From Lytechinus pictus (lineage: Eukaryota), in the NCBI RefSeq assembly GCF_037042905.1, contig NC_087245.1, positions 1,240,001 through 1,304,000 on the forward strand: a stretch of DNA of 64,000 bases, read 5' to 3'. Of this stretch, positions 2,523 to 53,500 are shown one piece after another. The notes under the pieces are model-generated. The model was not told where the DNA came from and did no database searches. It saw only the letters and a program-made list of their open reading frames with translations. The translations under genes and the position numbers were made by a program. The first letter of the stretch is position 1. Every line of letters starts with the position of its first letter.

Positions 2523-2851
2523 AACAGGTAATGACAGAGCAGAATGCTAGATACATCTAACAGTGACATTATAAGTATGTATCTAAGAGTAAAACAACAG
2601 GAAAAGGATGTAAAAATGCAGTGCAAATATTGAATAACAGCATGAACAGAGAGATCAGAAGTTAATCTTTTAGTAAGAAATAGTGATGGCATGCAGAATT
2701 GGTAGCATACGTAAAGACCAGAACAACAGCAGTATGAATTCATTGCAGTATCTGGGGGAACAGTCATAAAATTAATCTCTTAAATTACAAGTCCAGAATT
2801 ACATGTAAGAGATTACAAATGTTTTGATCTTTTGATGAATTGAGAAGGGAA

Positions 2852-3185
2852 TCAAAGACGGGCAAGATCTGCTTCTGTAGAGATGACAAGTGTTACTGTC
2901 TTGCCACCACTTGCTTTAACTTGGGCAAAGATTCTTCCATCATAGGTCCATGCATTAACAACATTGTTGTTAGTCATCTTCACACTTTTGTAGACTTTAC
3001 GGTACAGCGATTGATTTTTCATAGTCAGGTCTTCTTGTATAGATATGCGTGATCCTTTCAACTTTCTGCGTGATGAAATGACCTGCTTTTTAACACGATA
3101 GCTACAGAACTTAACTATCAGTGCGCGATGTTTTCCTGGATCTGGATCCGTCTTTCCTACGTGATGAAATCTTCAGCTTTTAGTT
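2852..3185 (-). pseudogene. LINE ORF1 C-terminal remnant belonging to the adjacent element
   Basis: IVKF...KLKGSRISIQEDLT...AWTYDGRIF resembles CR1/L2 ORF1 proteins; same strand and directly upstream of ORF2. Confidence 0.7.
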
Positions 3186-4295
3186 CTGCCTGAAAGTATG
3201 ATGACAACAAATTCATCATATAAATAGCTTTTTTCATCCTTGCTTGTAATCGTACACAGCATCTCGGTCCGCCTCGCCGGGTTCAGAGATAATATATATA
3301 TACGTGAGGATGGGATATGCATCCAACATTTCCAACAGTTTTTTTTTATCATTATAATAACATAAAGGCAATTAAGAAGATGAAATCCTGTGACACAAAC
3401 GAGTCAGGCCACATTGGTTAATTTGGTGTGTGTTTTTTCATCCTTCAAAATGACAAAAGTCTGACATTTTGATAAATCCTTACAGTGGCGGACCGTGACA
3501 CGGAGAGACAAAGCGTTGGAGGAATGGAGGGGCACAGCATTGTTCACAAACAATACAGTGCCCCTCCAATCAATTGTCTCCTCCGGGTCACGGTCCGCCA
3601 CTGAATCCTTATATTGGTCGGCTATTATCTTGGTATTCAAAATAGTCCTTGGGTTACATGCAGCCTATATGCTTAGAATGACATCATTATTGTATGACGA
3701 TTTACATTCTTTACATAAAAAGTACGTCGTATATTTACGAATCATTCGGATTTCCCGTCAGTTAGATTTCAAAATGGCCGCCAAAACAACATTTATTTTA
3801 TCCTTATTATATATTACATTTCCCTTTGCCCATAATTGATTTTTTTCCTTCTGTATATCCATAATATTGGGGCAGGGGGGGGGGTTGTTCTGTGACTGCT
3901 TTGGACAGTAATCTATATCTATTGTGAATAAATCAAATATTGGGTGATGCATTTGTTAATACAAGATATATAGAGGGGGTGAGAGGGGGCGGACAGAGAA
4001 AGAGAGAGTGGGAATCCAATATACACTCCACGTACAATGTACAATTTTAGTCAGATTACAAAAAGTTTGTGTATTATAAATACAACATATTTATTGTTCC
4101 TTACAAATTCAGCAGCAATCACCTAAGGATAATAATTGATGTTAATTGTCTCTTCTGCGATCCAATTTAATTTCCAATAAATGCAATTGAGCTATATTGC
4201 ACATATTATTCAGGTAAATTGGATGTGGTTCCGTGTGTTACTAGGAATAGGATTTCTCCAGACTCTATTGGGTTCGTTAAGTGAATGTATATATA

Positions 4296-5781: not shown

Positions 5782-6970
5782 TGTTACGAGTCATGTCTAT
5801 CAATGCCAGTGACCCAAATATTTTGTCTTGGTCATGAATCTTTTTCTTTTGTCCATAGTAATGTAGTGCAGTTGGCTATTAGCACATTTTCATTTGTGTG
5901 TTCCATACCTTGCATAACTCGGTGTTAGGCAGCTTTAAATAGGCTCTCTTGCAAGTTCTAATTCTGATCCCTATTCAATGCTAGGATGGTTCAGATAGTT
6001 TTCTTGCAAGGTTTTGTTTATAAGCAAGTGAATGCAATATTTAAGTAGATTGGGTTTAGATTGGAATTCTTATATGGGAGGAACCCTAGTTAGAATTGAT
6101 AGTTGTCACTTAGGAATCGGAGAGGCAGGACGTACCTCCGATCGAGTTCTCTCTAAGAGCAGCCGCCAGCAGCTAGCCTGCTAGGGTTTGGTAGCATCAG
6201 CTAGGCCGACATGGTCGGGCAACGACGGCATGTTTAGGCCGTACATCTAGAAACAAGGCGTGGCAGTTTCTTATATTTTTTCTAGCTATGTTGCACCACA
6301 TTTGTCTGTACTGGACATGGGCTGCTCCGGTCTTCCAAGCGTTCTTGTCACCAGTTAAACTATGGCGTTGACGGTGATGTCGACAGTTTTAATGATGTCC
6401 ATTGAGTGAAGGCGTTTCTCAAGCATAGAGGTGTAAACCCGATGTAAACTACAGTATGATGTAAAGTCTACACTAGTCAAGGTGAGTCAGTCAAGGCGAA
6501 CGTCGAAGGACTTCGGCCATGTTAGACGGTCAACGAGTTGATTCCAATATTACCAAGAAGTTCTTCAGATCAGGTTCCATATTTTAAAGAAATGAAGATA
6601 TAGAAAAAATAAAAGAACTTTTGGACTTTAAGCAGTAACACAGTAAACTGTTTGGTTATATTTAGATATATCATTTATATAATGAATTGATCAGGAATAG
6701 TAACTGTTAATGGTTGCATTACTGGATTGTCACGGTATTGCAAGGTATGATCTCCGTTGGATTTGATGATTGTTTTATTTTGAATACTTTTCCATATTTT
6801 TTTGTTTTGAAGTAATGTAATTGTTGTTCCAAGGAACACTTGAACTTGAAGATTGAAATTAAATCTAATTTCCTTAAAATATTGTCTCCATTGTTACTTT
6901 GTCTGAGTTCTGTATTTAAGAAGTTGCCACTGGACCAACAAGTCATCACACCCTCCCCATGGCTGTGACA
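5782..6970. mobile_element. Solo LTR (~1.19 kb) of an LTR retrotransposon
   Basis: Starts TGTTAC and ends GTGACA; exact 5-bp duplication GTCAG at 5777-5781 and 6971-6975; internal AATAAA near 6608. Confidence 0.7.
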
Positions 6971-7860: not shown

Positions 7861-8119
7861 GCTCTATAGAAAAAAATCAAGCACATGAACCCATGGTAAT
7901 TCTTGCATATTTCAAATATTCAGGTTCTAAAGGGTTTTTTTGCAAAGCTTGGTGAAAATGACATGGATTTCACTGTAACTGTGGAACGTCCTTAACTTTT
8001 TAAAATAGCAATATTTTGTGAAAACAGTTTATGTGCATTTTGTCATGAATATTGATTAGGTGGTTTGGTGATGAAATGTCCCCTCTTTCTTTTTTCTTAT
8101 GTTAGAAAGTCAAAAAGGG

Positions 8120-8158
8120 GCCTAAGCTTTCGATCCTAGCAGAATCTTCGTCGGAGGC
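8120..8158 (-). ncRNA. Minimal type-I hammerhead ribozyme (variant core CCGACGA)
   Basis: Minus strand reads GCCU-CCGACGA-A-GAUUCU(GCU)AGGAUC-GAA-AGCU-U-AGGC: 4-bp stem I, 6-bp stem II, palindromic minimal stem III. Confidence 0.75.
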
Positions 8159-9083
8159 AAAATGACAAACATATAAAGTGGAACAACCATAATATAGACC
8201 ACAAACAAGCTACAGCAACACTAGAAATAAGGAGACAAAAGGGGCATTAGTGAGTAGAGAAGACCAATCAGGTTAGTGAAGGGGATGAAAGAAAAGGAGT
8301 AGGCAGACACAAAGGGAAGTTAGTGTAAGTAAGGCCAGTAAAAGACCTCAAGCCAAGAGGGATTAAGATAATGAGGCAGGCAACATCAAACAGGATCTGG
8401 AACAAAACAGTGATAGAGGGATGAATAACAAGAGAATTAGTGAGAGGTGGGTCAAACAGGTTACAAAGAAAGGCATAATAAACTGGTGCATAAGAGTGGG
8501 GGGGGGGGGGAAAGGAAAAGAATGGGGAACAACTGATAATGTGCAAAAGACATATAAGTATATATGATAAAGCATTAAACAAACTAAGAGAAGAAGGTAA
8601 GTGTAAATATGTATCTACAAGTGATATGTATATAAATATATCAACAAAAAAAAGAAATGTATATGAAAAATATAAATACACATATATGGTGTAACTGATA
8701 TTGTAATCCGCTAGGTGTGACGGGAAAAAAACATAAGACTATATAGTAGGAAAAAAAAAAAAAAACTGTATATATATGTGAAAAAGAGGAAGCAAATTGC
8801 CTAAAAAGGTAAAAGCAAATATAGAAGAGAGGGGGTGTATTATGAAGAAACCATAGTATACATGTAAATAAGCAAATGTGGTAAATCTAAAAGAGGTGAG
8901 TGGAGAAAAAAAATATATATATAATCATTATTATATCGCCTGAATAAGGAAGGAAAAATTGGAGCTGAGCTTGTATGAGATATGGGAGGAAAGTAGAGGA
9001 AGAAACTATAATGTTACTATTCAAAAGAGCTGAGGGGAAAAATTATATGTATATATAAATTGAAAGTGGATAGGAAAGAATAA

Positions 9084-9848
9084 TCAGTCGTTCCCCTCTT
9101 GGATGTTCAGGCCATGAGGTTGGGTGGTGCGAAGTCGTCTCATCCAGAGTTTCTCTCTGCTAGTACGGACTGAGTCAGGACGGGCACCTAAAGATTCGAT
9201 GCCCTGCAGCATCATGTCAGTGATGGAGTGGTTGGGGAGGTTAAAATGGCGGCCAACTGGAGTGTCCAGCTTTGCTGTGTTGACGGTGGATCTGTGCCCG
9301 TAGAATCGTTTCTTGAGCGTGGTCTTGGTTTCCCCTATGTATTGTACCCTACAAACTCTGCAAGTGATGAGATATACAACATTAGTGGTAGTGCATGTGA
9401 TGTTGCCCTTGATTTGGTGAGACGGGCTGGTAGAGTTGCTGGTGAAAGTGTCGCCCTCGTGAAGGTGTATTTCACATATGATGCACCTGTTGCTGGTGCA
9501 TTTGAAGGTGCCATGCTGTATGGGAGAAGAATGGTTGGTGAGGGAGGGCACTTCAGCACGAACAATGAGTTCCCTGAGATTCGGTGGGCGTCGGTATGCT
9601 AGAAGGGGAGTATCGGGAACGGCCTGTTGGAGACGATCAGAAGTGTGTAAAATGTGGTGGTTATCACACAGGATTTTGCGGAGAGGGGGTAGATTGGGAT
9701 GGAAGGTGGTCACAAGCGGTATTCTGTCGGTAGTCTCCTTGTCACTTTTAGGTTTGAGAACTTCAGATCTGGGGAGAGAACGAACTTTGTTAATTGCCAG
9801 TTGGACTGCCCTGGCCCCGTGGCCCCTGGCACAGAGATGTTTCTGCAA
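9084..9848 (-). CDS. Penelope-like element C-terminus: RT thumb/linker, Cys knuckle and GIY-YIG endonuclease (truncated)
   Basis: RIPLVTTFHP, AYRRPPNLRELIVRA, CTSNRCIIC, NVVYLITC..C..QYIGET, RFYGH, E..W, PHGLN. Confidence 0.9.
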   Translation of the reverse strand: MQKHLCARGHGARAVQLAINKVRSLPRSEVLKPKSDKETTDRIPLVTTFHPNLPPLRKILCDNHHILHTSDRLQQAVPDTPLLAYRRPPNLRELIVRAEVPSLTNHSSPIQHGTFKCTSNRCIICEIHLHEGDTFTSNSTSPSHQIKGNITCTTTNVVYLITCRVCRVQYIGETKTTLKKRFYGHRSTVNTAKLDTPVGRHFNLPNHSITDMMLQGIESLGARPDSVRTSREKLWMRRLRTTQPHGLNIQEGND

Positions 9849-10079
9849 ATTCCATTTTCTTATGTCATTACATTATATCATAATTATTTCATATTTTCAT
9901 ATATGCGTGTACGATACGTCTCTCTGATAATAAAGTAAGTTGCAGCAATGAACATCCAATGCATTAATTTTGTTACCAATCCTTTCTTTTAATTCTCGGA
10001 GGACAAAATTCGAAGAAAAAAATCTAATCTAATATAATATAATAAAAAAAAAGTCGGGATATGATACCATCATATCCCT

Positions 10080-12918: not shown

Positions 12919-13391
12919 AAAATTGAAATTGATGAAGAAATGACAGAGAAGAAGAAGCATTTTTTTGTGATTTATGAATAAATTTCGTATAAATTAGCAT
13001 AAATAATTTTCTGGTCAAAATTTCTAAATTCTGTGTAGAACCTTGGTGAACCTCATGTTGCTCTCAGATGGAACCAAAAAGAAAAAAGAAATCAAACTCA
13101 GTCAACAAATAAGTAAGAAGCATTTTTAGTGAGTTTTGTAAAATATGCATAAATCAGCATATTTAATGAGTTTCAAAATTCTGTGTTAAAAAGCAAACAA
13201 ATTGAAACTTATCAACAAATGAAGGAGAAAAATAATTTTTTGTGATTAATGAATAATTTTGCATAAATTAGCATTAATAATTTTCTAGTCAAAATTTCAA
13301 AATTCTGTGTGGAAGTTTGGTGACCCTCATGTACCTCTACCAGATATATAACAAAAATTGGTCAACAAATAAAGAAGAAGAAGCATTTTTT
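12919..13391 (-). repeat. Partial copy of the 14165-15105 element, in inverted orientation
   Basis: Reverse complement of ~14553-15018 with high similarity. Confidence 0.85.
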
Positions 13392-14164
13392 AGTTAATAA
13401 CTAAATACCATAACCCGAAAGTTTTCCTTTTCAATCAATGAGAATTTACATAAAAATCATAATGTAATGACATGTAATGGTTAAACAGTATAGGAGAAAA
13501 TGATGCTAGAAGTTGGCAAAGAAAAGCACACAACAACAACAATGGAGATAGGGTACATCATATACTAACAGTGTATAATCTTTTTTTCTTTCTCGGCATT
13601 AAGTGACTTCCTTTTATTGCTTGTATTGTATGATTATGTCTGTTGATTAATTATGGGTCCAAATTCAAACGCATAATATAAATCACAATAATCTTCATCT
13701 GCTGTAATCAGCTGCTGTGATTATTTAGTTAATCCTTTTCATTTCTCTGCATTAAGTGACTTTCCTCATATTTATTGTATTTTTATATGTCTGTTGATTA
13801 TGCAGAATAAAATCACCTTATCCGAAACGCACAGTAATCCATGTCACTTCAAATAACAAAATAATAAATGATAAAAAACAACTTCACAATGGTTAAAGAT
13901 CATCTGATCACAGGAGAACGGAATCAAATGATAAAATGCCAGATATGTTCCTTATTGCAAGGTGCATTTGCCCTAGGTGTCAGATATTTTAGAAATGTAA
14001 TTATGTATGAATGTATAATATAATTTATCAGCTGATTACTTTGGCAATATTTATTCCTACATGTCACTGAAGTACACGAAAACAATGCTAGGCAAGACGT
14101 GATCTTACACTTGTCTTCAATTCTTCAAAGTGCAGGATTGAGCCTATCGTAAGCATGCATTGTG

Positions 14165-15105
14165 TTATGACGGCCCTTCCGGCGGCCCGGATGAGCTTAT
14201 ATGCCGTGGCGTGGCCTCCATCGCCCGTCGTCTGTCGTCCGTCCACAATTTCAAAATGCTTCTTCGTCATTTCAAGTCCGATTTCAATTCTGTTTGCGTT
14301 ATATGATAGCAATAGGTGGGGATTCAGAACTTCTATACAGAATTTTGAAACTCATTAAATATGCTAATTTATGCGTATTTTTCAAAATTCACATATAATG
14401 CTTGTTCTTCTTTATTTGTTGACCGAATTTGTGTTTTTTTTCTTCCATCTGGTAGAGCTTCATGAGGTTCACCAAACTTCAACACAGAATTTTGAAATTT
14501 TTACTTGAAAATTATATATGCTAATTTATGCGAATTTTAACCATAATCACAAAAAATGCTTCTTCTTCTTTCTTTGTTGACCAATTTTTGTTATATATCT
14601 GGTAGAGGTACATGAGGGTCACCAAACTTCCACACAGAATTTTGAAATTTTGACTAGAAAATTATTAATCTAATTTATGCAAAATTATTCATTAATCACA
14701 AAAAATGTTTTTTCTCCTTCATTTGTTGATAAGTTTCAATTTGTTTGCTTTTTAACACAGAATTTTGAAACTCATTAAATATGCTAATTTATGCATATTT
14801 TACAAAACTCACTAAAAATGCTTCTTACTTATTTGTTGACTGATTTTGATTTCTTTTTTATTTTTGGTTCCATCTGAGAGAAACGTGAGTTTCACCAAGG
14901 TTCTACACAGAATTTAGAAATTTTGACTAGCAAATTATTTATGCTAATTCGAAATTTATTCATAAATCACAAAAAAATGCTTCTTCTTCTTTGTCATTTC
15001 TTCATCAATTTCAATTTTGTTTCCTCAACAGTGTCAACTGGCTGAAATTGTGTTAAATTTCATTGCAAGATGCCGGATGAGCTCTATATCATTGATGTGC
15101 TAGTT
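14165..15105 (+). mobile_element. DINE-1/Helentron-associated-like non-autonomous element with internal tandem repeats
   Basis: CCGGATGAGCT near both ends, GTC/GTCC microsatellite near the 5' end, internal ~120-140-bp subrepeats, ends CTAGTT. Confidence 0.55.
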
Positions 15106-19077: not shown

Positions 19078-19106
19078 TAATAGTGTATGTACTATGTAAT
19101 CATTAA

Positions 19107-19717
19107 AGGACAAGTCCACCCCAACAAAAAGTTGATTTGAATAAAAAGAGAAAAATCCAACAAGCATGACAAGTATAACACTAAAAATTTCATCAAAATC
19201 AGTTGAAAAATAAAAAAATTATGACATTTTAAATTTTGCTGGATTTCACAAAACAATATGCACATTATGGTCCGTATATGCAAATGAGGAGACTGATGAC
19301 ATCATCCACTCACTATTTCTATTGTATTTTGTTACATGAAATATTCTAATTTTCTCCTCATTATCAAATGAAGCAATGATTAATTCCTCCCTGAGCCTGT
19401 GGAACTAGCATTGTTTAACACTATATGGTTCAGTCAAGTTGATCCTTATTGTCAAATATGTAAAACAAAAAATGAAATATTGTATATATGATTCAAACAA
19501 AAAAATATAGTGAGTGGAGGACATCGTCGACTGTCTCATTTGCATATCACTGAATCGTGCATATCACTGTTTTGTGAAAAATAATCAAAACTTTACAATG
19601 TCATAACTTTCTTAGTTTACATCCGATTTTGATGAAATTTTCAGCGTCGTCATGGTCGTGCTAGTTTGATTTTTCTGCATTTATTCAAATCAACATTTTC
19701 TGGAGTGGACTTGACTT
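19107..19717 (+). mobile_element. TTAA MITE family A (Kolobok-like), copy 1
   Basis: TTAA-AGGACAAGTCCACCCC start with long TIRs; ~610 bp. Confidence 0.85.
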
Positions 19718-20205
19718 TTGATAGTATATTTTTTGCATTTTCCCCTTTTTTATATGCTTTCCAATCTGAATTAAGAGAAGATCAGTATTTGCAATGTATA
19801 TGCTTATCTTTTCTTCAATGTAATTTATAGAAATATCTGTCACATGTACCTTGTTATGATTATTTTCATTTTATATATGATAACGCAAACTATTTATATT
19901 AATTTTGATAATGCATGAATACAAAATTCTGTATCCATCTATTTAGGCAAGTTTGTTTTAAATATTTTAATTTCTTAATTTCTTACGCATTGTGTCATTA
20001 TCCAATTGATTATCATATATTCTTCTGCAATTCAGCCTTAGGCTGCGAATGAATTTTCAACAAACCATTACCATACCATATACCATTGTATGTACTATGA
20101 AAGTTGTTAACAGATCATAAAAGCAGCGGATATATCCCACATTAAATAATGTCTTATTTTATTTTACCCTTGGGCAAAACAGAGGTTTATCTAATGATAT
20201 AGGTA

Positions 20206-20273
20206 TATAGGCGGATCTGGGGGGGGGGGCGAGGGGCCCGTCCCCCTATTGGCGAAGGCTGGATCCGCCCCTG
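20206..20273. mobile_element. 68-bp ends-only derivative of the GGCGGATCC-TIR element family
   Basis: Left half matches the start at 56929; right half is the reverse complement of the start at 57252. Confidence 0.7.
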
Positions 20274-20499
20274 ATATAGTCATTGAGGTGGTTCAACCAA
20301 CCCAGTCTCACGATATTTCAAGCAGTAAACAAGGGGATAGATTGGCAAAACGAGGAAGAAGGGGAAAGAAAGCATAACCCCGGCTATTCAAGTAAAAAAA
20401 TAACGCAATCTTTGAGTTGTCTGCCCCCCCCCCTTAGATATCCTGGCGACGCCCCTAAGACATGTATTATGATTGAATGCAAACAGGCACCTAGCTTAA

Positions 20500-21082
20500 A
20501 GGGATGGTCCGGGCTGAAAGTATTTATAGCTTAATAAATAGAGTAGAATTCACTGAGCAAAATGCCAAAAATTTCATCAAAAATCGGATAACAAATAACA
20601 AAGTTATTGAATTTTAAAGTTTAGCAATATTTTGGGAAAACAGTCGTCATGAATATTCATTAGGTGGGCTGATGATGTCACATCTCCACTTGTTCTTTTG
20701 TATTTTATTATATAAAATGAGGTTTATTCAATTTTTTTCCTCCAAGAAGTAGACAAATTGGAATGACAATGATTTAGTGCATTAGATATTTATTGCTGCA
20801 ACTTATTTCATTATAAGGGAGAAATATTATTCACACAAGTATGAAATAATGAAAAAAAATATGATTTTATGTAATAACATAAGAAAACGGAAAGTGGAGA
20901 TGTGACATCATCAGCCCACCTCATGAATATTCATGACGACTGTTTTCACAAAATATTGCTAAACTTTAAACTTCAATAACTTTATTATTTGTTATCCGAT
21001 TTTGATGAAATTTTCGGCATTTTGCTCAGTGAATTCTACTCTATGTATTAAGATATAAATATTTTCAACCCGGACCATCCCT
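20500..21082. mobile_element. TTAA MITE family B (Kolobok-like), intact copy
   Basis: TTAA-AGGGATGGTCCGGG...CCCGGACCATCCCT-TTAA with ~190-bp TIRs; decayed relatives at ~21752-22285 and flanking the Penelope-like element. Confidence 0.9.
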
Positions 21083-22379
21083 TTAACCCGAACTAGGCTA
21101 GACTTTGGGGCTATGCTATAGGGGGGGGGGGGCATTTGAGAGGTAATTGAGCGGTTTACAGCTACCGTATTCGAAACAATACTACTATCATGACTATTGC
21201 CAGATATCCTCTACAAGACTGATTAATACAATTTCTGAAATTAATTGTGTTTTCAATAGGTAATTCTGCTAGTTTATGCATAAGATGAAAGATTTGCTCT
21301 GATTAAATACTGCTCCAGAATTGTTAATTTTCTATTCACATTTTTTAATTTCTAGACTTTATTCTGATCATACAAACAAGACAAAATTGATTGAGTTTAA
21401 TGAGTAAAAGTGGAAATAAAGATAAGCCTTACATTTAGGAATATTAGATAAAAAAAAAAAATTACATTGAATTTGTACATGATTTCACGTTCTTGTGCAG
21501 TCTGGAATCTGGCATACACTTTTTCAGAAAAAAGTTGCGCAAGACTTGAAAGAAAAAAGCATGTGGATAATGCGGCGCCAGGTTTTTCGCGTTACCGATT
21601 CATTGCGAAAAAAATGTAGAGGGTATGGATTCCAGCCCAGCCTTTTTAGGGTTAAACTAACACATCCCGACCATGAACCCTTTATCTATGGCTAGCATGG
21701 TTTGGTTTCAGAGGGTACATGCTATAGACTGGACCGTGTAAATGTAACAATTGAAGGGATCGGCTGAAAATGATATGATATGAACGGATACAGTAAAATC
21801 AGAAAATTTCATCAAAATCGGACAAGGAATAACAAAGTTACTTTGGTGAAACCATGGAGCTATCTGTGTTTTATAGCTCCATGGTGAAACAATATATTCT
21901 ATGCATTTCTGCATGAATATGTAATAAACAAGCCAATGATGTCATATCCCACTTGTTTTTTTCTTCTTGTATTTAATGATAAATAATACCAACATGCGTC
22001 CTTCATGTCCTAATCTGCAACTTATTTTGTTGCAAGAGAGACACATCATACACACAATATCATAAAAAAGGAAAGTGAGGAATGACATCATCAACTCACC
22101 TACTGAATCATTCATGACGGCATGGATGTAACTGTTTTCACAAAGTAAATAATGCTAATCCTCAAAAATCAGTAAATTCGTTATTTGTTATCCTATAAAT
22201 ATTGATGAAATTTTCAGCGTTTTGCTCATTGAATTTTACTCTATTTCTTATAGGTATATTGATTTTCAGGCTGGAGTTCACATTGAAAGTGCTTACCATG
22301 CAGGCGTTCTTGAAAGTGCATATACATTTGTATTTGGTTTCTGATTAATTTTGTCTTGTTTGTATCTTTCCATTTTCAG

Positions 22380-34324: not shown

Positions 34325-37300
34325 AGTGTCCTGATCTTGTTAATAATTTATTACGTTGATGTGAAATTAAACTTTGAATAACAAGCTCTTAAAGGTCATG
34401 TTGAAATTCACAGGAATTGATAAATGACAAGACTTCACATTAAAAAATACAGTCTCAATCTAAAAGAGATAAAGGATATTGAAAAAGCTGTTAATTTTGA
34501 GGAAGGTTATATTAAAAAGTGATGGATAGTAACTTTCTTCATGCTTTGAGGATTGATCGACTTCATTAATAAACGAATTAGTGAAGGTAGATTATTTCAA
34601 GCTGCAGCGAAAAATGTTCATCAGTCTGGAATTTTAATCGAAAAATGTGTTTTACTAAAACCCCATGTCGGAGGTGGAGCAAGCTATTTGATCGGCAATG
34701 ATCAATATCATGTCGTTATCATGATAATGAATATCTTGCAAAGAGAATTGAAGCGAAAAGTGATGTGACAGTTGAAATTGGATTGCTCATTACGCGTCCA
34801 TTTAATTAGCGTGTAATGTGCATGAGCTTGGTGATAAAGGCTATTAGCATGATTAAAACGTCATTGAATCGAACAAATGATATTTTCCTATACAACAAGA
34901 GTTGTAAATGGTAACATTATACCATAATATATCATTCCGATAAGTTGCGAGTCAATATACCCACACTGTAAAAGTCGGGATCTTAAAACTGACACCCCTG
35001 GTGTTCCTATATAGAGGACCACATCCTGAGGTCTTAAAACATGTAAAATGACACCCCAAAAAATCGAACACCAAACAGTGTGAAAATAACAACCAAAGTT
35101 TGTTTTTCTAAACCGGTAGGTGTTCAAGCATAACCTGATAATACCGAAGTTTAGCACTGCTGTTGTCATCGGTATCTGCTCGGTGTTTCAACGAATTATT
35201 GTTGTTAAATCATTGACCCTGTGATTTCATGACGATCATTTTGATCCTGTACTTAAAAAATGTATCGATGACCGTCATTTCTGCAATGAGAAGCGAGGGA
35301 CAGAGCTAAAAACTGCTTTTCGCCAAAGAAACGAGTCGAAAGACATGAGAAGAAATTTCCACAATAGATTGACGCAGGAATTCAATTTAAAATATAAAAA
35401 AAATACTCGTCTTTTTTTGTAATTATTGCACTTTATAGAAATAACAGTTTCATAAACATAACCCATTCGCAAATTTAAAGGCCATCGATTCCTGGAACTA
35501 AGAGCTTGAGGGCGTTATTGGATAAACCAAGGACTGTAACTGTCTTTGTATACGCACTGCAAGTTTACCCGGACAAAAATAGCCGGAAAAAAAATGTTTT
35601 AAAAATATATTGGTGAAGGTTTAAAGAAAATCCATCGAAGATTTCAAAATTTAATAGAATTTAAGTGAAATGTCATTTTCAAAAAAAAGAAAGGGAAAAT
35701 GGGTTTTATTGTACCTTCAGTATATCAACAAACTAATTTTTCTACATCCGCATCCGAAAGAAGAAAGTATTTAGTCATCAAGAACCACTAAAAATTAAAA
35801 TGTATGCAATTTATAGGACATTACATATTTGGCGGCTGCTCGTATATGACATAAAAAACTGAAACTTCTAATAACTTTCTTAATCTTTAATGGATTAAAA
35901 AAAAAAAAAATTCGTCGGGGTGAAATATTCTTTCAATTATTATTTTCGGCAAAGCAGTTCTGGTTTTTCTCGCTATGAATTACGATCTTGATAGAGTAAC
36001 TTTTAAAACATTTTTATTGTTATATAGCATGCAAAATATAATAATTTCTACATCTATTGCCCTGCCCTAATTATGATTTGCTGTGCAAACCCTTTATTCG
36101 GTGAAAGTTGTCTGAATATGCAGCCTATAGGGTCACTGCCTTTGACTTGTGTATAGAAGAAAAAAGCTTTATATGTGCAATAGTGTCGTGATTTCTGAAT
36201 TTTTATCGCCTAAATCTTGACGTGGTCGTGTCGATTCGCAAACTAGATAGACTTGCCCCTGAAAAGGTCAAGGAGGTAGAGCGGGTGCCTGGCCTCTACC
36301 TAGGGGAACTTCACCCTGGAAGAAAAGTTTGTTGTAAACATGATGACAAAAAAACAAACAATGGTGAAGGTTCGAGGAAAATCCATTATAATTTATTAGA
36401 ATTATTAGAATGTTAAGTTTCTGATGGGTGACGTCATATACGAGCAGCTGTCCAACGTGTTATGTAATACAAAATGCATAAATGTCATTTTTAAAATGAT
36501 TCTCGACGACTTATCTTTTTTTCTTTTTAGCATCCGATGTGAAATGATTTGTTTATTGATATACTAATGGTACAATAAGACTTATTTTCAATTATCTGAG
36601 AAAATGACATTTCACCGAATATTTTACCATACTGTATCTAAAAAGCTGCTCGCATATGACATCACTAATCAAATTCTAATAACTTTTTTATCCTTTGATG
36701 GATTTTCCTCGAACCTAAACCGATATTGTTTATTATTTTTTTCTGCTATTTCAGGGCTAACTTCTCCTTTCATCACGTTTTGGACCCTCACCCAACCAAT
36801 ACCTACTGAAGCCGCGTTTCAACAGCGACTGCATGAATACGTTAACCCCTATCTACATCAGACAAACGACATTAACCGAAGTCAAATGATTTTAATGTTT
36901 TACTGAACTTGTAGCTGCACGGAAGATTAAGTATTTACAGGCTACCGCATATTAAAATAATAATTCAAAAAAAAATCGTCGAGCACTATGGAAGCACATA
37001 AGACTGGTCCGGTTGTGATTGTAAGGCAGCCGGTCTTACCATGGTCTTACATAGTTATTGTGAACTTGATTGGGTCTGATGTTGTTTGAAGGTTTGCATG
37101 GTGGTATGTACAATCGCTGATGTGGTTTACGGTACACCATGTGTAGTGTCATAGAAACAGTGGATAGAAGAAGAGAAGAAAATGGATAGGCGAGAAAGTG
37201 GAGATTTGAGAATAGAGTATTCTTTCTTGTAAGTAGTCCTGAAAAGGACTGTAAACCAGGAAAGATTGAAGAGTTGAGAACAGCTTGAGTAGTAGAGCCG

Positions 37301-37352
37301 ATGAGGAGATGCTGGCTTGAGTAGGCGAGTAGAGATGATGAGTAGTAGAGAG

Positions 37353-37393
37353 ACTCGACGTTTCGGGCAGGTTGACTGTCCGTCTTCAGGAGT
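37353..37393 (-). ncRNA. Minimal type-I hammerhead ribozyme, canonical core
   Basis: Minus strand reads ACUC-CUGAAGA-C-GGACAG(UCAAC)CUGCCC-GAA-ACGU-C-GAGU: CUGANGA and GAAA boxes, GUC cleavage triplet, 4-bp stem I. Confidence 0.9.
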
Positions 37394-37593
37394 GTTTGCA
37401 TGGTGGTATGTACAATCGCTGATGTGGTTTACGGTACACCATGTGTAGTGTCATAGAAACAGTGGATAGAAGAAGAGAAGAAAATGGATAGGCGAGAAAG
37501 TGGAGATTTGAGAATAGAGTATTCTTTCTTGTAAGTAGTCCTGAAAAGGACTGTAAACCAGGAAAGATTGAAGAGTTGAGAACAGCTTGAGTG

Positions 37594-37626
37594 AGACGGA
37601 CAGTCAACCTGCCCGAAACGTCGAGT
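37594..37626 (+). ncRNA. 5'-truncated copy of the same hammerhead (CUGA lost at the inversion junction)
   Basis: AGACGGACAGTCAACCTGCCCGAAACGTCGAGT is identical to the 3' part of the intact motif. Confidence 0.75.
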
Positions 37627-38913
37627 CTCTCTATTACTCATCATCTCTACTCGCCTACTCAAGCCAGCATCTCCTCATCGGCTCTACTACTCAAGCTGTT
37701 CTCAACTCTTCAATCTTTCCTGGTTTACAGTCCTTTTCAGGACTACTTACAAGAAAGAATACTCTATTCTCAAATCTCCACTTTCTCGCCTATCCATTTT
37801 CTTCTCTTCTTCTATCCACTGTTTCTATGACACTACACATGGTGTACCGTAAACCACATCAGCGATTGATTGGGTCTGTACACGCGATAATCGCTTTTGA
37901 ACCAGCCCCCCCCCCCACAAAAAATTAAAAAAAATAAATAAAAAAATAAAATTTGAAAAAGATACTTGTTCCTGTCTCTGTATGTCGTCAACAAAATTCC
38001 TCTCTTATCAGTCACTATACCGACTGTTTATTTTTGCAAAATCATATAATGTATATATCTTTCTGCCCCGGGCCTGGTCGTTATCTCTCCATTAGATTTA
38101 TCTTGCTCTTTTTCTAGAAGAGAACAATATTTAGCTTTTCTCCAGAACTCAGACCTGTAATGCCAAACGGTCGCATCAAAGAAATCGGTTGTTAATCGTA
38201 ATAAATTTTGTAGGTCGGGGACCAGTCTTACAAAGAGTTGCCATTGATCCGATCAACCACTACGATGGAACTCCAGGAACATCAACTTCTAAAATGCATG
38301 TTTCTTCAAAAAAAATCTAGACATGTATATTCATATATTCGTATTTTCTTGAAAATTTAGTGTGCTTTTCTTTTTTAACATAGGACAAAAATTTGCAAAA
38401 AAAAGAGCAAAATTCCTTTATTTTTTTTTGGCTTGTCAAGATTTTCCTCCGAAAAATTTGCCCCCCCCCCATTTGGAAAATCCTGGATCCGCCCCTGGCG
38501 TAATAATTATCATGGTTATCCGCTTCCTTTGGAGCTTTAAGTGAAACTCCATTAACAATATTCTATGAACTCAAGGGTGGAGTATACCCTTCTATGTACT
38601 CCAATACATATAATGGCTAAAATGTCATTTTCCCCAAAAAGTTTTATTTCAAATTAATTTTCTTGCAACTTGTTGCCAATTTGAAATCTACATGGTCTTA
38701 GCATGGTCTTAGTTATCTCAATTTATAAGCAGCTATAACTTTCTTATTGCCTGTCGGATTTCTTTCAAACGTTCATCATTCTGTTTAATCTATTTTTCTC
38801 CTTCCCAAAATAACATTTTATAGCCAAGGCAGGATTCCCCTTTAATTATTGCTCTCATGCATAACAGGCGACATAGGCCTAGATTCGTCTATTTTCTTTT
38901 AATCTGTCATTGT

Positions 38914-47260: not shown

Positions 47261-47554
47261 GGAAATCACTGCAACAAAATACCTACCTTGTAAGTTCAAA
47301 ATAAGAAGTGTCATGGTGAAAATATGTTTTCACGTTTGATCGCTACGCTTTCTTGGAAATTCTCGAATGTTTTCTGGTATGCTTTCACATTCATTCTGGC
47401 TCTTTTTCTTATCTCTTTAGTCTAATCCTAATTTTACATGACAAATAGCTGCAGAGCTCAAATGTTCGTTCACAAAATAGGGATTTTGCCCTAGCGTAAA
47501 GTACATGTAGGAGAAAAACCCAAAAGAAACATTATGATTATAGATAAAACTTAA

Positions 47555-48157
47555 AGGACAAGTCCACCGCAACAAAAACTTGATTTGAATAAAGAGAGAA
47601 AAATTCAACAAGCATAACACTGAAAATTTCATCCAAATCGGATGTAAAATAAGAAAGTTATGACATTTTAAAGTTTCGCTTCATTTCACATAACAGTTAT
47701 ATGCACATCTCGGTCGGTATGCAAATGAGGGAACTGATGACATCACTCACTCACTATTTCCTTTGTATTTTCTTATATGAAATATGAAATATTTTTATTT
47801 TCTCGTCATTGTCATGTGAAATGAAGTTTCATTCCTCCCTGAACACGTGAAATTCCATTATTTTAACATTTTGTGCTTCAGGCAAGGAGGTCCTAATCAT
47901 CAAATTCGTAAAAAAATGAAATATTGTATAATTCGAACAATAAAAACAAAAAAAATAGGGAGTGAGTGACATCATCGACTCTCTCATTTGGATGTAACTG
48001 GCTCGTTCATATAACCATTTTGTTAAAAATAAGCGAAACTTTGAAATGTCATAACTTTCTTATTTTACATCCGATTTTGATGAAATTTTCAGCATTGTGC
48101 TTGTCTGATTTTTCTCTATTGATTCAAATCAAAAATTTTCTGAGATGGACTTGACCT
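47555..48157 (+). mobile_element. TTAA MITE family A, copy 3
   Basis: Same termini and body as other copies. Confidence 0.9.
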
Positions 48158-48290
48158 GTAATGCCAGTTGTGATAAAGATTTCAAAATGAGTTCATACAA
48201 AATCAAAATTACCACCCAAGTGTCTGTAGGTAGGAATATAAAAAAATATTAGGCAATTATTCTGGAAGAAAGTGTGTAATTTCTATTTAA

Positions 48291-48893
48291 AGGTCAAGTC
48301 CACCCCAACAAAATGTTGATTTGAATCAATAGAGAAAAATCAGACAAGCACAATGCTAAAAATTTCATCAAAATCGGATGTAAAATAAGAAAGTTATGAC
48401 ATTTCAAAGTTTCGCTTATTTTTAACAAAATAGTTATATGAACGAGCCAGTTACATCCAAATTAGAGAGTCGATGATGTCACTCACTCACTATTTCTTTT
48501 GTTTTTTATTGTTTGAATTATACAATATTTCAATTTTTACGAATTTGACGATAAGGATCTCCTTGCCTGAACCACAAAATGTTAAAATAATGGAATTCCA
48601 TGTATTCAGGGAGGAATGAAACTTCATTTCACGTGACAATGACGAGAAAATCAAAATATTTCATAATTCATATAATAAAATACAAAAGAAATAGTGAGTG
48701 AGTGATGTCATCAGTTCCCTCATTTGCATACCGACCGGGATGTGCAAATAACTCTTTTGTGAAATGAAGCGAAACTTTAAAATGTCATAACTTTCTTATT
48801 TTACATCCGATTTTGATGAAATTTTCAGTGTTATGCTTGTTGAATTTTTCTCTTTTTATTCGAATCAAGTTTTTGTTGGGGTGGACTTGTCCT
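48291..48893 (-). mobile_element. TTAA MITE family A, copy 4
   Basis: TTAA on both sides; inverted relative to copy 3. Confidence 0.9.
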
Positions 48894-49135
48894 TTAAAAA
48901 ACATGGAATTCGAACACGATGTCGGGTCTTTTTCGAAGCAAAAACCCATCAAAGAAAAACTTAGTTATCGATTTTTTCATATTTAATAACGACAAAATCG
49001 AGCTGCTCCCCAACATGTCATGTGATAGATATTCCATAAAATGCAATTTTCTCATAAATTGCCAATGTGGTGGGTATATCAGCATACATATCATTTTACA
49101 CAAACGACTATGAGGGATATGTTTTAGTGGTGCCA

Positions 49136-49550
49136 GGTAAAAATGGCAGAGGTAATAATGGCAGAGGTGAAAAAGGCAGAGGTAAAAATGGCAGAAGTAA
49201 AAATGGCAGAGGTAATAATGGCAGAGGTAAAAATGGCAGAGGTAAAAAATGGCAGAGGTAAAAATGGCAGAGGTGCAAATGGCAGAGGTAATAATGGCAG
49301 AAGTAAAAATGGCAGAGGTAATAATGGCAGAGGTAAAAATGGCAGAGGTAAAAATGGCAGAGGTAAAAATGGCAGAGGTAATAATGGCAGAAGTAAAAAT
49401 GGCAGAGGTAATAATGGCAGAGGTAAAAATGGCAGAGGTAAAAATGGCAGAGGTAAAAATGGCAGAGGTAAAAATGGCAGAGGTAATAATGGCAGAGGTA
49501 AAATGGCAGGGGTTATAATCGGAGAGGTAAAAATGACAGCTCTAGGTAAA
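49136..49550. repeat. 15-bp minisatellite (GGTAAAAATGGCAGA)n, roughly 26 units
   Basis: Directly visible, with variants GGTAATAAT and AGTAAAAAT. Confidence 0.97.
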
Positions 49551-50214
49551 ATATGGCCTTAAACCCACATGCAATGAATTGTCAAAAAGCCAAAGTCAAA
49601 GTATCTATCACATGACATAATGTTAAAACTCTTGTCATAACTTTCGCCGGTCAAGTGAGATCACCCGCTCGACCCCCCCCCCCCTTCCCCTAATTTGAGA
49701 TATCTCCATATTAGATGCATTATTTTGTAAAGAATAATCTACAAGTCTAGCTGCCTTATTTCATTTCCAATCAGTGAGATTGGAAATGAAATAAGGCATC
49801 ATTGATTTAGGAAATTAGGCACAATATAAGGCCTATACTGAACGAAAATATTTGAGCTACAGGCAGCCTGGCTGTATGGAATCTTACTCTACGTACGGTC
49901 TGTGTAATTTATTATATTATGGTCTTTCATAATTATTTCCAGTTGAACGCCTATGAAGTAAAATCTTTTTTCCTTCTTTCATTTTGTATGATACTGAGTG
50001 TTGCTGTGTTAAGTAGACTATTCTCTGAAAAGAAATAAGCAATAGACTTTATAGGGCCATGTGTATATTTTGTTTTCTGTAAGCGTGTATTACGTTATTT
50101 TGATTGGGTCTGCAGTCACCCCAACCCCCTTGTATTTTTTTTTTCATTCATTTTTTATTTATTTTTATTTTTAACAAGTGCACACCTAGTTACCAAGAAT
50201 GTGTATAGCATTTT

Positions 50215-50330
50215 CATTTATTTGAATGCAGGATAAAAGAGCTTGCTCACGGGCATAGGTGCCGCGGCCGGGATCAAACCCCGGACATTCCATGTATAGT
50301 CAGGCGCCAAGACCACTCGGCCACTGCACC
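50215..50330 (-). mobile_element. tRNA-derived SINE head, decayed
   Basis: Minus strand GGTGCAGTGGCCGAGTGGTC...GGTTTGATCCC (A and B boxes), then GTGAGCAAG core. Confidence 0.65.
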
Positions 50331-51409
50331 TATTGTGTATTGTGTTTGTACCTCGATAGGCGGGGTGTTGTGGGTTTTTTTTCTGTTTTCTTTTTTTTTT
50401 AATCACAGCGTCTGAAATCGCACATTTCACTTCTTCATAACAATATATTATTCTTCATCAGTTTATTATCATCTGAAATAAACTCATTAATTTAGCTGTA
50501 ATGATTCGAAGTCCCTGTTTTGAAAACACATTCCACTGTTTGATTTATAAGATTGTACTGTCCTTCATTTTTAAAATCATAATGAAATTTAGGGTTGATA
50601 TACGAGCATATAATAACGCAATGTTATTACATAGACGTCCTATGCTATATACAAAATGCGATGTCTCATTGTATTAAGGTTCACAAGGAGGGGCATTATT
50701 ACGTAACAGTTTTCGTGCATCGTGTTTGCACTGCCCTATTCATCACCCTCGACATAATTTGTTCATCTTCTTTTGTATGGCATCTTGTTGAGTTCTGCTC
50801 CTGTTAGGCTTTGGACAGTATGAGCTGAAACATGTTCGATTTTCTTTTAGTGCCAGGTCATTTGAATGGGGGGGGGGGGGCAAAAGTTCAATATTGCATA
50901 TATATCGAACGCCCACCTCCTCATATATTTAGTCTGAAAATTAAATATATATATAACGATGCTGCATTTCTGCGAGTCAGCTTCGCAATTATTTACATCG
51001 AAATTTCACAGTTTTCTAAAGGTATTTGTTTTTAGAGAACATGCATATCGATCGGGTGTTCGGGTGCATGGGGGGGGGGGGGGCTATCAAGACATCCCTA
51101 TATGAAAATCAATTTCAGTTGCGGCTTATTGCGAGGGATCGAGCATAGATTCCAATTAAGCGAGAGGATTTTTGTTTGTACAATATAGCCACATTGCCCC
51201 GAGCATGCATCTTTTTATATTATTATTTATACTTACCTAAGTATAAAGATAGATACTTACCTATAAAGAAAGAAGGGGATCAATACAAATTTAAGACATC
51301 CTTGAAGATTACGAAGAAACAAATTCGTAAAATTCATACTGAGCAGAATTTTAGGCCTATATAATTACGACACATAGCACGCTTCTCCATATTATCTAAA
51401 CGATCCAGG

Positions 51410-52460
51410 CCCGGGGGGGGGGGGGGGACAGTCAACTGTACAAATGCGTGACCAAATTATTTCCCAACACCAACTAAACGAGGTTTTTTTTCTGTGTGCA
51501 AAATAACCCCATAAACAAGTTTTTTTTCGCGGGCTTTAGTTACACGTTTTGGCTCTTAATCAAGTTGTCGCCAGACCCCGGGGGAAAAACATACTCTAAA
51601 CACGTTTGGCTTGTCTACAAAAAAACTTTGGAAAAAAATAATAAATACGTTTGACCCCGCGACTGACCTGCATTGACCAGTCTTTCAAAACCACCCTTTA
51701 AAAAAAATCGGTGTTTTTTTATATACCCTTAACGAGTGCACGCGCGGCCCGCTTCCAAAACTGAAAAAAACCCATCTCTTTAAAGGACAAGTCCACCCCA
51801 ACAAAAAGCTGATTTGAAGAGAAAGAGAAAAATCAAACATGAATAACGCTGAAAACTTCATCAAAATCGGATGTAAAATAATAAAGTTATGACATTTTAA
51901 AGTTTTGCTTATTTTTAACAAAATAGTTATATGAACGAGCCAGTTACATCCAAATGAGAGAGTCGATGATGTCACTCACTCACTATTTCTTTTGTTTTTT
52001 ATTGTTTGAATTATACAATATTTCAATTTTTACAAATTTGACAATTAGGACCCCCTTGCTTGAACCACAAAATGTTAAAATAATGGAATTCCATGTGTTC
52101 AGGGAGGAATTAAACTTTGTTTCACATGACAGTGACGAGAAAATCAAAATATTTCATATTTCATATAATAAAATACAAAAGAAATAGTGAGTGGGTGATG
52201 TCATCGGTTCCCTCATTTGCATACCGAACAGGGTGTGCATATATAACTGTTTAGTGAAATTAAGCGAAACTTTAAAATGTCATAACTTTCTTATTTTACA
52301 TCCGATTTTGATGAAATTTTCAGTGTTATGCTTGTTTGATTTTTCTCTTTCTATTCAAATCAGCTTTTTGTTGGGGTGGACTTGTCCTTTAAACGCGGGT
52401 TTTTTTTTTGGTCACGTGTTGTGTACAGCAATATATTTGACTACCCCCCCCCCCCCCCCG
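51410..52460. mobile_element. Second copy of the 23574-23977 MITE, interrupted by family A copy 5
   Basis: Colinear with 23574-23977 on both sides of the insertion. Confidence 0.85.
51784..52388 (-). mobile_element. TTAA MITE family A, copy 5
   Basis: TTAA at 51780-51783 and 52389-52392. Confidence 0.92.
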
Positions 52461-52897
52461 ATCAAGGGAGGTCAGCCAGTTTGGAGGGGGGGGGGTGAGT
52501 TTCAATATACTGACGGTGTACTATTGCTCCCATACGTATACCCCGTGGTGCCATCGCTGGGAGAAGGACACGGGAAAAATACAAGAAGCATTGGGCTACA
52601 GGAAACATGATAGATACGTATATCAGTCAGGTTGAAAATTTTAGTGCATGTAGACCGCGGCAGAACAGATGATATGATGGCGCGGTTTCTGATCACATGG
52701 CCCTGAACTATGTCAAGATCATGACAGTAATCAAAATACATGAACTTACTATTACTATCTAAGTATTACTCTACTTCTCATAATAGGCTACAATGGTGGG
52801 AAAAAGCCGGGGAAAAAGCCAAGCCCGGGAGGCAAGGAGTGACAGCGTTTCCCATACCACGGACCTACTACTGACTCCTCGCCTCGGATCTTTTTAA

Positions 52898-53500
52898 AGG
52901 ACAAGTCCACCCCAACAAAAACTTGATTTAAATAAAAAGATAAAAATTCAACAAGCAAAACACTGAAAATTTCATCAAAATCGGATGTAAAATAAGAAAG
53001 TTATGACATTTTAAAGTTTCGCTTCATTTCACAAAACAGTTATATGCACATCTCGGTCAGTATGCAAATGAGGGAACTGATGACATCACTCACTCACTAT
53101 TTCTTTTGTATTTTATTATATGAAATATGAAATATTTTGATTTTCTCGTCATTGTCATGTGAAATGAAGTTTCATTCCTCCCTGAACACGTGGAATTCCA
53201 TTATTTTAACATTTTGTGCTTCAGGCAAGGAGGTCCTAATCACCAAATTCGTAAAAATTGAAATATTGTATAATTCAAACAATAAAAAACAAATGAAATA
53301 GTGAGTGAGTGTCATCATCGACTCTCTCATTTGGATGTAACTGGCTCGTTCATATAACTATTTTGTTAAAAATAAGCGAAACTTTGAAATGTCATAACTT
53401 TCTTATTTTACATCCGATTTTGATGAAATTTTCAGCATTGTGCTTGTTGAATTTTTCTCTTTTTATTCAAATCAACATTTTTATGAGGTGGACTTGACCT
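52898..53500 (+). mobile_element. TTAA MITE family A, copy 6
   Basis: TTAA on both sides; inverted relative to copy 5. Confidence 0.92.

Follow-up and report, generated by a model that had tools for sequence, protein, structure and literature searches.

Hammerhead ribozymes in the termini of Penelope-like elements are an established system, minimal type I motifs having been described there in 2014 (Cervera and De la Pena, 2014; PMC4209133), and the sequence-only reading of the locus presented here rightly took them as such. The published consensus of these minimal motifs includes an extra nucleotide, a palindromic helix III and U17, which is frequent in Fig. S3 of that work, the core variant reported is U3-A8, and truncated Penelope copies with single 3' motifs are listed, including a sea-urchin example (PMC4209133). 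Even canonical minimal motifs cut poorly (PMC4209133), and the proposals for a role in Penelope-like elements extend from the processing of tandem transcripts to hitch-hiking (PMC4209133; PMC8557442). In Anolis, the Penelope hammerhead cut only with protein present, catalytic mutants of the element inserted unchanged in vitro, the main substrate being uncut RNA (PMC11167929). Regarding the core substitution that concerns us here, U4C is reported to lower considerably the activity of a viroid hammerhead in vitro, yet to permit infectivity (PMC3088659, citing Ambros and Flores, 1998); in pairwise mutagenesis, all single and double mutants of the CUGA turn, the C-G swap excepted, had low activity (PMC9901934), and the text supplements of that work hold no per-mutant activity value for U4C. 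A literature search returned U4C in conjunction with hammerhead in a single paper, on the viroid, and the dimeric Penelope variants of Lunse et al. (RNA Biol 14:1499) may include C4.

The window, i.e. the whole stretch of 64,000 nucleotides from Lytechinus pictus that was analysed, contains a truncated element of this kind on its minus strand, the parts and surroundings of which are the following.

8006..8102, no strand assigned: older host repeat, insertion target, left part, resuming at 9855-9949; both flanks match 20792-20961 in register
8092..8102, plus strand: target-site duplication, left copy, 11 bp, identical to 9855-9865
8103..9853, minus strand: 5'-truncated Penelope-like retrotransposon copy (C-terminal piece of the ORF, 3' UTR and hammerhead), bounded by the duplication
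8109..8166, minus strand: distal closing stem predicted for helix I, 4 bp formed by 8163-8166 and 8109-8112, enclosing an internal loop
8120..8158, minus strand: minimal type I hammerhead motif, in which core position 4 (8153) and the free position 7 (8150) are both C
8123..8124, minus strand: predicted cleavage site after U17, by hammerhead numbering, 21 nt inside the 3' end of the element
8125..8128, minus strand: palindrome of helix III (AGCU), whose pairing is predicted to require two copies
8159..9083, minus strand: 3' untranslated region or pseudo-LTR body, 925 nt, fast evolving by comparison with relatives
9084..9851, minus strand: last 255 codons of the ORF and their stop (RT thumb end, linker, GIY-YIG endonuclease), no internal stop
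9282..9380, minus strand: GIY-YIG motif region (Pfam PF01541, residues 165-197 of a 262-aa frame)
9474..9500, minus strand: C-x4-C-x2-C zinc-finger-like linker (C118, C123 and C126 invariant in 20 aligned proteins)
9855..9865, plus strand: target-site duplication, right copy, 11 bp, identical to 8092-8102

The 11-bp flanks are identical, and at 20.8 kb the host repeat, uninterrupted there, contains their sequence once, from which it follows that the element is a 5'-truncated insertion with a target-site duplication. The span first proposed, 8103..9850, is correct at its left end and falls short at its right, the true limit being 9853, where DNA likeness to relatives begins (blastn); the protein match begins at the NLQ codons, and the nearest protein, P0041, runs on upstream with RT sequence. 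The motif had been placed about 930 bp past the GIY-YIG stop on the same strand, and the measured distance is 925 nt. Apart from the vicinity of the motif, most of this 3' UTR cannot be aligned with relatives that are 83% identical in protein. The host repeat of the element is related to MITE-like copies near 20.6-22.2 kb, and many MITE-like repeat copies in both orientations occupy 47500-53500 and 19100-22250 of the window. Elsewhere, long inverted repeats (280 nt, 96%) flank about 1.4 kb at 12992-14949, probably a DNA transposon, and a G+C-richer stretch at 6197-6560 looks by eye like the remnant of another retroelement, its 63-aa frame having no Pfam match.

The piece of ORF identifies the kind of element concerned. 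Its Pfam GIY-YIG match (E 1.7e-4, 22.3 bits) lies just below the cut-off of 22.6, and the YIG, Arg, Glu, Asn and CCHH residues of the endonuclease are invariant in the 20 aligned proteins. A linker of the form C-x(2-5)-C-xx-C that joins RT to EN marks Neptune/Nematis as against Penelope/Poseidon (PMC8557442); by this linker and the C-terminal GIY-YIG, the element is assigned on sequence to the Neptune/Nematis-type EN+ Penelope-like elements, of which its full-length relatives also have the RT ahead of the linker and the DKG motif, the tree having been built without named reference elements. The piece shares 83% of its residues with the last 255 of a 905-aa RT+EN protein (P0001) and is 95% identical to P0041, whose source name is Lytechinus variegatus, and its dN/dS is about 0.15 against the lineage of L002, L005 and L006. 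As to full-length RT+EN copies, a search for which had been proposed, RT sequence is borne by relatives (83%) and by the named protein pieces P0041, P0046 and P0060 at 87-95% identity, further pieces with RT sequence lying at 87-96%, while an intact full-length copy of the family itself was not seen. One relative, L010, has an ORF of 890 codons together with a hammerhead and what by eye is a likely 5' intron (GT...AG). The hammerhead lies 3' of the ORF in the window copy, L005-L009 and L014, and upstream of it in L010; in no single locus of those analysed is it present at both ends.

The motif announced for the minus strand, GCCU-CCGACGA-A-stem II-GAA-AGCU-U-AGGC, was recovered as written at 8120-8158: a 4-bp stem I, the core CCGACGA, an extra A, a stem II of 6 bp including two G-U pairs and closed by a 3-nt loop, GAA, AGCU and U17. 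With both strands of the window searched, a loose type I descriptor that tolerates one core mismatch matches only there, a strict descriptor matches none of 40 windows simulated with the dinucleotide make-up preserved, and a covariance model built from six relatives, the window copy excluded, likewise finds this motif as its sole match in the 64 kb, at 61.3 bits (E 5.6e-14, by rough calibration). The Rfam hammerhead families have no match in the window at gathering threshold. With the published Penelope minimal hammerheads (PMC4209133) the motif shares its terminal-repeat position, a short helix I (4-5 bp), a long helix II with G10.1-C11.1, the unpaired nucleotide after A9, A15.1-U16.1 followed by the palindromic 15.2-16.2 and H17 (AGCU then U), as well as the occurrence of a single 3' motif in a 5'-truncated copy. 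The CUU triplet, initially listed as a deviation, is no such thing, U17 being ordinary for the class (PMC4209133, Fig. S3). The U-to-C change in the CUGA box is real: the canonical core C3-U4-G5-A6-N7-G8-A9 with G12-A13-A14 is broken at position 4 and nowhere else. The window family thus differs by C4 from the U4 found in 56/56 representative rows of Fig. S3, a uniformity of limited reach since searches for a conserved core would have missed C4. The oddity of the motif is C4 alone, the Penelope hammerhead system being known and U4C having a viroid precedent. The predicted distal closing stem has a pair probability of about 0.7 in a 68-nt fold; by eye, its two arms can pair in L005-L008, do not match in L009 and L010, and cannot be made out in L014. 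Identity as a non-LTR retrozyme was considered and rejected: a single motif is joined to a coding fragment here, as against non-coding tandem repeats with a hammerhead per unit.

A second hammerhead of the window had served as the point of comparison for the first. At 37111-37868, a unit of about 300 bp with a partial tandem and an inverted copy bears a minimal hammerhead with a canonical core near 37350-37390, in a layout resembling the partial-tandem and inverted arrangements of Penelope insertions (PMC8557442). The topological match claimed between the two motifs holds insofar as the extra nucleotide and the 4-nt palindrome are present, and fails as a special likeness, both being traits of the class (PMC4209133). 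Since topology is the class consensus, it says nothing on a helper relation. We consider it quite improbable that the Penelope family at 8103-9853 is the autonomous helper of the repeat at 37.1-37.9 kb. Two minimal type I hammerheads do occur within one window, and Penelope elements have been proposed as helpers of animal retrozymes (10.64898/2026.07.22.740005); the suggestion that the class of helper exists in this genome is true in a generic sense, without any sequence link to the 37-kb repeat. As had been remarked, the two share no evident sequence: blastn gives no match between them, the best local score of the repeat against the 3' region of the element is 23, equalled by 128/300 shuffles, and at E 5 the family covariance model does not match the 37-kb region. 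The terminus of a helper is often matched by its published non-autonomous derivatives (PMC8557442; 10.64898/2026.07.22.740005), and in Xenopus 24/57 retrozyme families are homologous to known elements at their termini, nearly all of them Penelope-like (10.64898/2026.07.22.740005). Such homology being missing here, another family is the likelier source, and the 37-kb motif by eye resembles another listed echinoderm family, represented in Fig. S3 by the rows S. purpuratus (2) and Patiria (PMC4209133).

Relatives of the element place C4 in time. A metagenome scan gave 17 related loci among 232 candidate stretches, and protein-based scans gave one distant locus among 53 candidate stretches of genome contigs and none among 17 of viral contigs; a motif pattern search had no match in either the genome or the viral contigs. 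A recognisable sense-strand motif is present in 9/18 loci (L001, L005-L010, L014 and L017). In L002-L004 (84%) and L011-L013 the sequence ends 184-712 nt past the ORF and holds no motif, and none was found in the distant relatives L015, L016 and L018. All seven close homologous motifs (L005-L010 and L014, from elements at 60-83% protein identity) have U4, as do the more distant ones of L001 and L017; five relatives (L005-L008 and L010) carry the canonical core CUGAAGA, L009 has an unpaired C3/A8 and L014 a compensated U3-A8. In a quick tree, the window groups with P0041 (98), as sister to L005/L006 (92) and within a set with L007/L008 (96), and a lineage thus nested among U4 carriers means that C4 is derived. 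The altered cores of L009 (1708-1748) and L014 (1246-1286) sit within near-identical stems, and from their sequences the hammerhead core looks labile in this clade. A conserved box headed by AAGCAGTTT lies about 45 nt 3' of the hammerhead in L006, L007, L008 and L010, the window copy ending before it; it may be an optional tail or a second start site of reverse transcription. In L005, on a low-coverage metagenome contig, the Penelope 3' end abuts by eye a bacterial aminotransferase-type ORF (about 2820-3571), a junction that is probably a chimeric assembly.

Besides, C4 could be followed across the family in contigs from 4/24 sequencing runs (X1, X6, X10 and X14, with four coded organism labels), aligned to 8050-8420 at 82% likeness, with 5, 359, 4 and 1727 contigs in the four runs; differences were listed from 4% of depth, summed depth not being copy number. 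At position 4 (8153), no alternative letter reaches 4% of depth in any of the four runs, contigs being prone to drop rare variants, and U4 copies below 4% may exist. The only motif site listed as variable is the free position 7 (8150), where X14 has A over 55% of its depth (71 contigs), while the sites of the stem, GAA, palindrome and position 17 are unchanged at the 4% level in all four. The CCGACGA core, whose fixation had been raised as a question, is hence fixed at C4 as far as contigs show, and not at position 7. One contig of X1 (304 nt) and one of X10 (225 nt) span the motif, each departing from the window by a single letter, at 8228, outside the motif. The window copy lies near the majority form of its family. 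In X14, eight UTR sites are near-fixed for a letter other than that of the window, and C4 has been kept, so that X14 represents a separate lineage and C4 is family-wide and older than that split. Summed depth of the aligned contigs is higher over 8115-8166, which again is not copy number. That C4 would be a private decay mutation of one dead copy is consequently very hard to uphold: U4 in 7/7 close homologous motifs of other lineages and the 5' truncation of the window copy would suit it, and the uniformity of 8153 in the four runs speaks against it. A T-to-C change at 8153 moreover creates a CpG, the opposite of the usual decay by methylation, and counts further against it.

The reading that we favour, at a probability of roughly one half, is that the terminal hammerhead of this young Neptune/Nematis-type family, with its shared U4C, would be a weakened ribozyme, slow and dependent on dimerisation or on protein. 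A master element would have gained C4 and gone on producing copies. Support comes from the viroid, in which U4C permits infectivity, and from Anolis, in which insertion in vitro ignores cleavage (PMC3088659; PMC11167929). The viroid variant has the same core substitution and is reported to be much slower in vitro yet infectious; unlike this sequence variant, the window family has a fixed change, in a genomic retroelement and in a minimal dimer-type motif. The low activity of CUGA-turn mutants and the poor cutting of canonical minimal motifs are the caveat to a weakened ribozyme, activity by this analogy being possibly nil.

Whether the motif has been kept by selection bears on this reading and on its rivals. 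The covariation alignment comprised seven motifs, L008 being left out as identical to L007 and L001 and L017 as members of other motif families. In it, 96.7% of cells pair, and both sides have changed in 3/13 pairs: C3-G8, one pair of stem II and the inner pair of the palindrome, the last with both sides changed in three of the seven motifs and broken in one. The covariation score is 0.227 vs. 0.116 in shuffles and far lower values in slid controls, none of 500 shuffles scoring as high and paired cells likewise exceeding 500/500, a control that overstates support and gives no true probability because the seven sequences are few and related. At position 17, U, A and C occur and G does not. The stems and the palindrome thus covary across relatives, mostly of U4 lineages, where covariation across copies had been put forward as a check. 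Against L005, the motif differs at 3/39 nt and synonymous sites at 39% (P 1e-5; dN/dS 0.155), a comparison that shows long selection on the motif, mostly within U4 lineages. After C4 arose, no fixed change is counted vs. 1.2-1.4 expected (P 0.24-0.30, not significant). The long-term covariation would also fit the idea that C4 is compensated, whether by dimer context, by distal stem or by element protein, such that cutting equals that of the U4 relatives, as would the compensated U3-A8 core of L014 and the need of the Anolis hammerhead for protein (PMC11167929); yet C4 came without an accompanying change, the free positions 7 and 17 excepted, and the published U4C data are of lowered activity (PMC3088659; PMC9901934), which makes full compensation improbable.

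Regarding chemistry, the motif folds no more stably than shuffles (z -0.28), longer contexts no longer keep stem I in their minimum-energy fold, and nearest-neighbour energies disfavour the catalytic dimer, at -22.9 kcal/mol, relative to an alternative dimer at -32.2 kcal/mol. The palindrome cannot form helix III within one strand, so cutting would need two motifs (PMC4209133), which come together in a tandem or double-pLTR transcript (PMC4209133). The covariance model finds no partner for the window copy in the 64 kb, and the solo copy is probably inert in cis.

Insertion may make few demands on the cut. Immediately left of 8102, X6 and X14 lose depth about 30-40 fold, and loose ends sit at 8102; many copies reach about 21 nt beyond the predicted cut and were thus likely copied from uncut RNA. 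In the window copy, target-primed reverse transcription would have begun about 21 nt past the cut site on uncut RNA and stopped early. This recalls PAc, the Poseidon element of Anolis carolinensis, in which copying starts internally, downstream of the hammerhead, on an uncut substrate; PAc belongs to another clade, has a canonical core and carries a hammerhead that overlaps with the start codon, whereas in the present clade the upstream motif of L010 lies about 240 nt ahead of the ORF (PMC11167929 for PAc). If insertion does without the 3' cut, a slower core would be tolerated.

The same independence of insertion from cleavage in vitro (PMC11167929) lends itself to a further reading, a serious one though short of even odds, by which the family hammerhead is catalytically dead and C4 was fixed by descent from one master since cleavage is dispensable, the stems persisting by recency or the fold marking protein binding or the start of copying. 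CUGA-turn mutations gave low activity and no rescue (PMC9901934), Naiad elements proliferate without canonical hammerheads (PMC8557442), L009 has an unpaired C3/A8 core, and constraint after C4 is not significant, all of which agree with a dead motif; stems, GAA, palindrome and position 17 staying constant at the 4% level while the free position 7 varies do not, nor does the viroid, in which natural U4C keeps some function (PMC3088659).

For the biology of the family, a rather doubtful but consequential proposition is that it kept transposing through at least one lineage split with U4C fixed, either because cleavage is dispensable, the fold acting as a signal by which the element's protein lands or primes, or because the ribozyme was favoured in a slowed form, since the RNA's 3' end would then survive to be copied. 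A U4C family of this kind bears on the question whether Penelope elements need the cut, and it implies that searches based on CUGANGA miss whole families. Together with its near-identical relatives of canonical core, the C4 family constitutes a matched natural pair for a cleavage assay and, if the proposition is true, a fixed-U4C family would be a natural experiment on the purpose of Penelope hammerheads.
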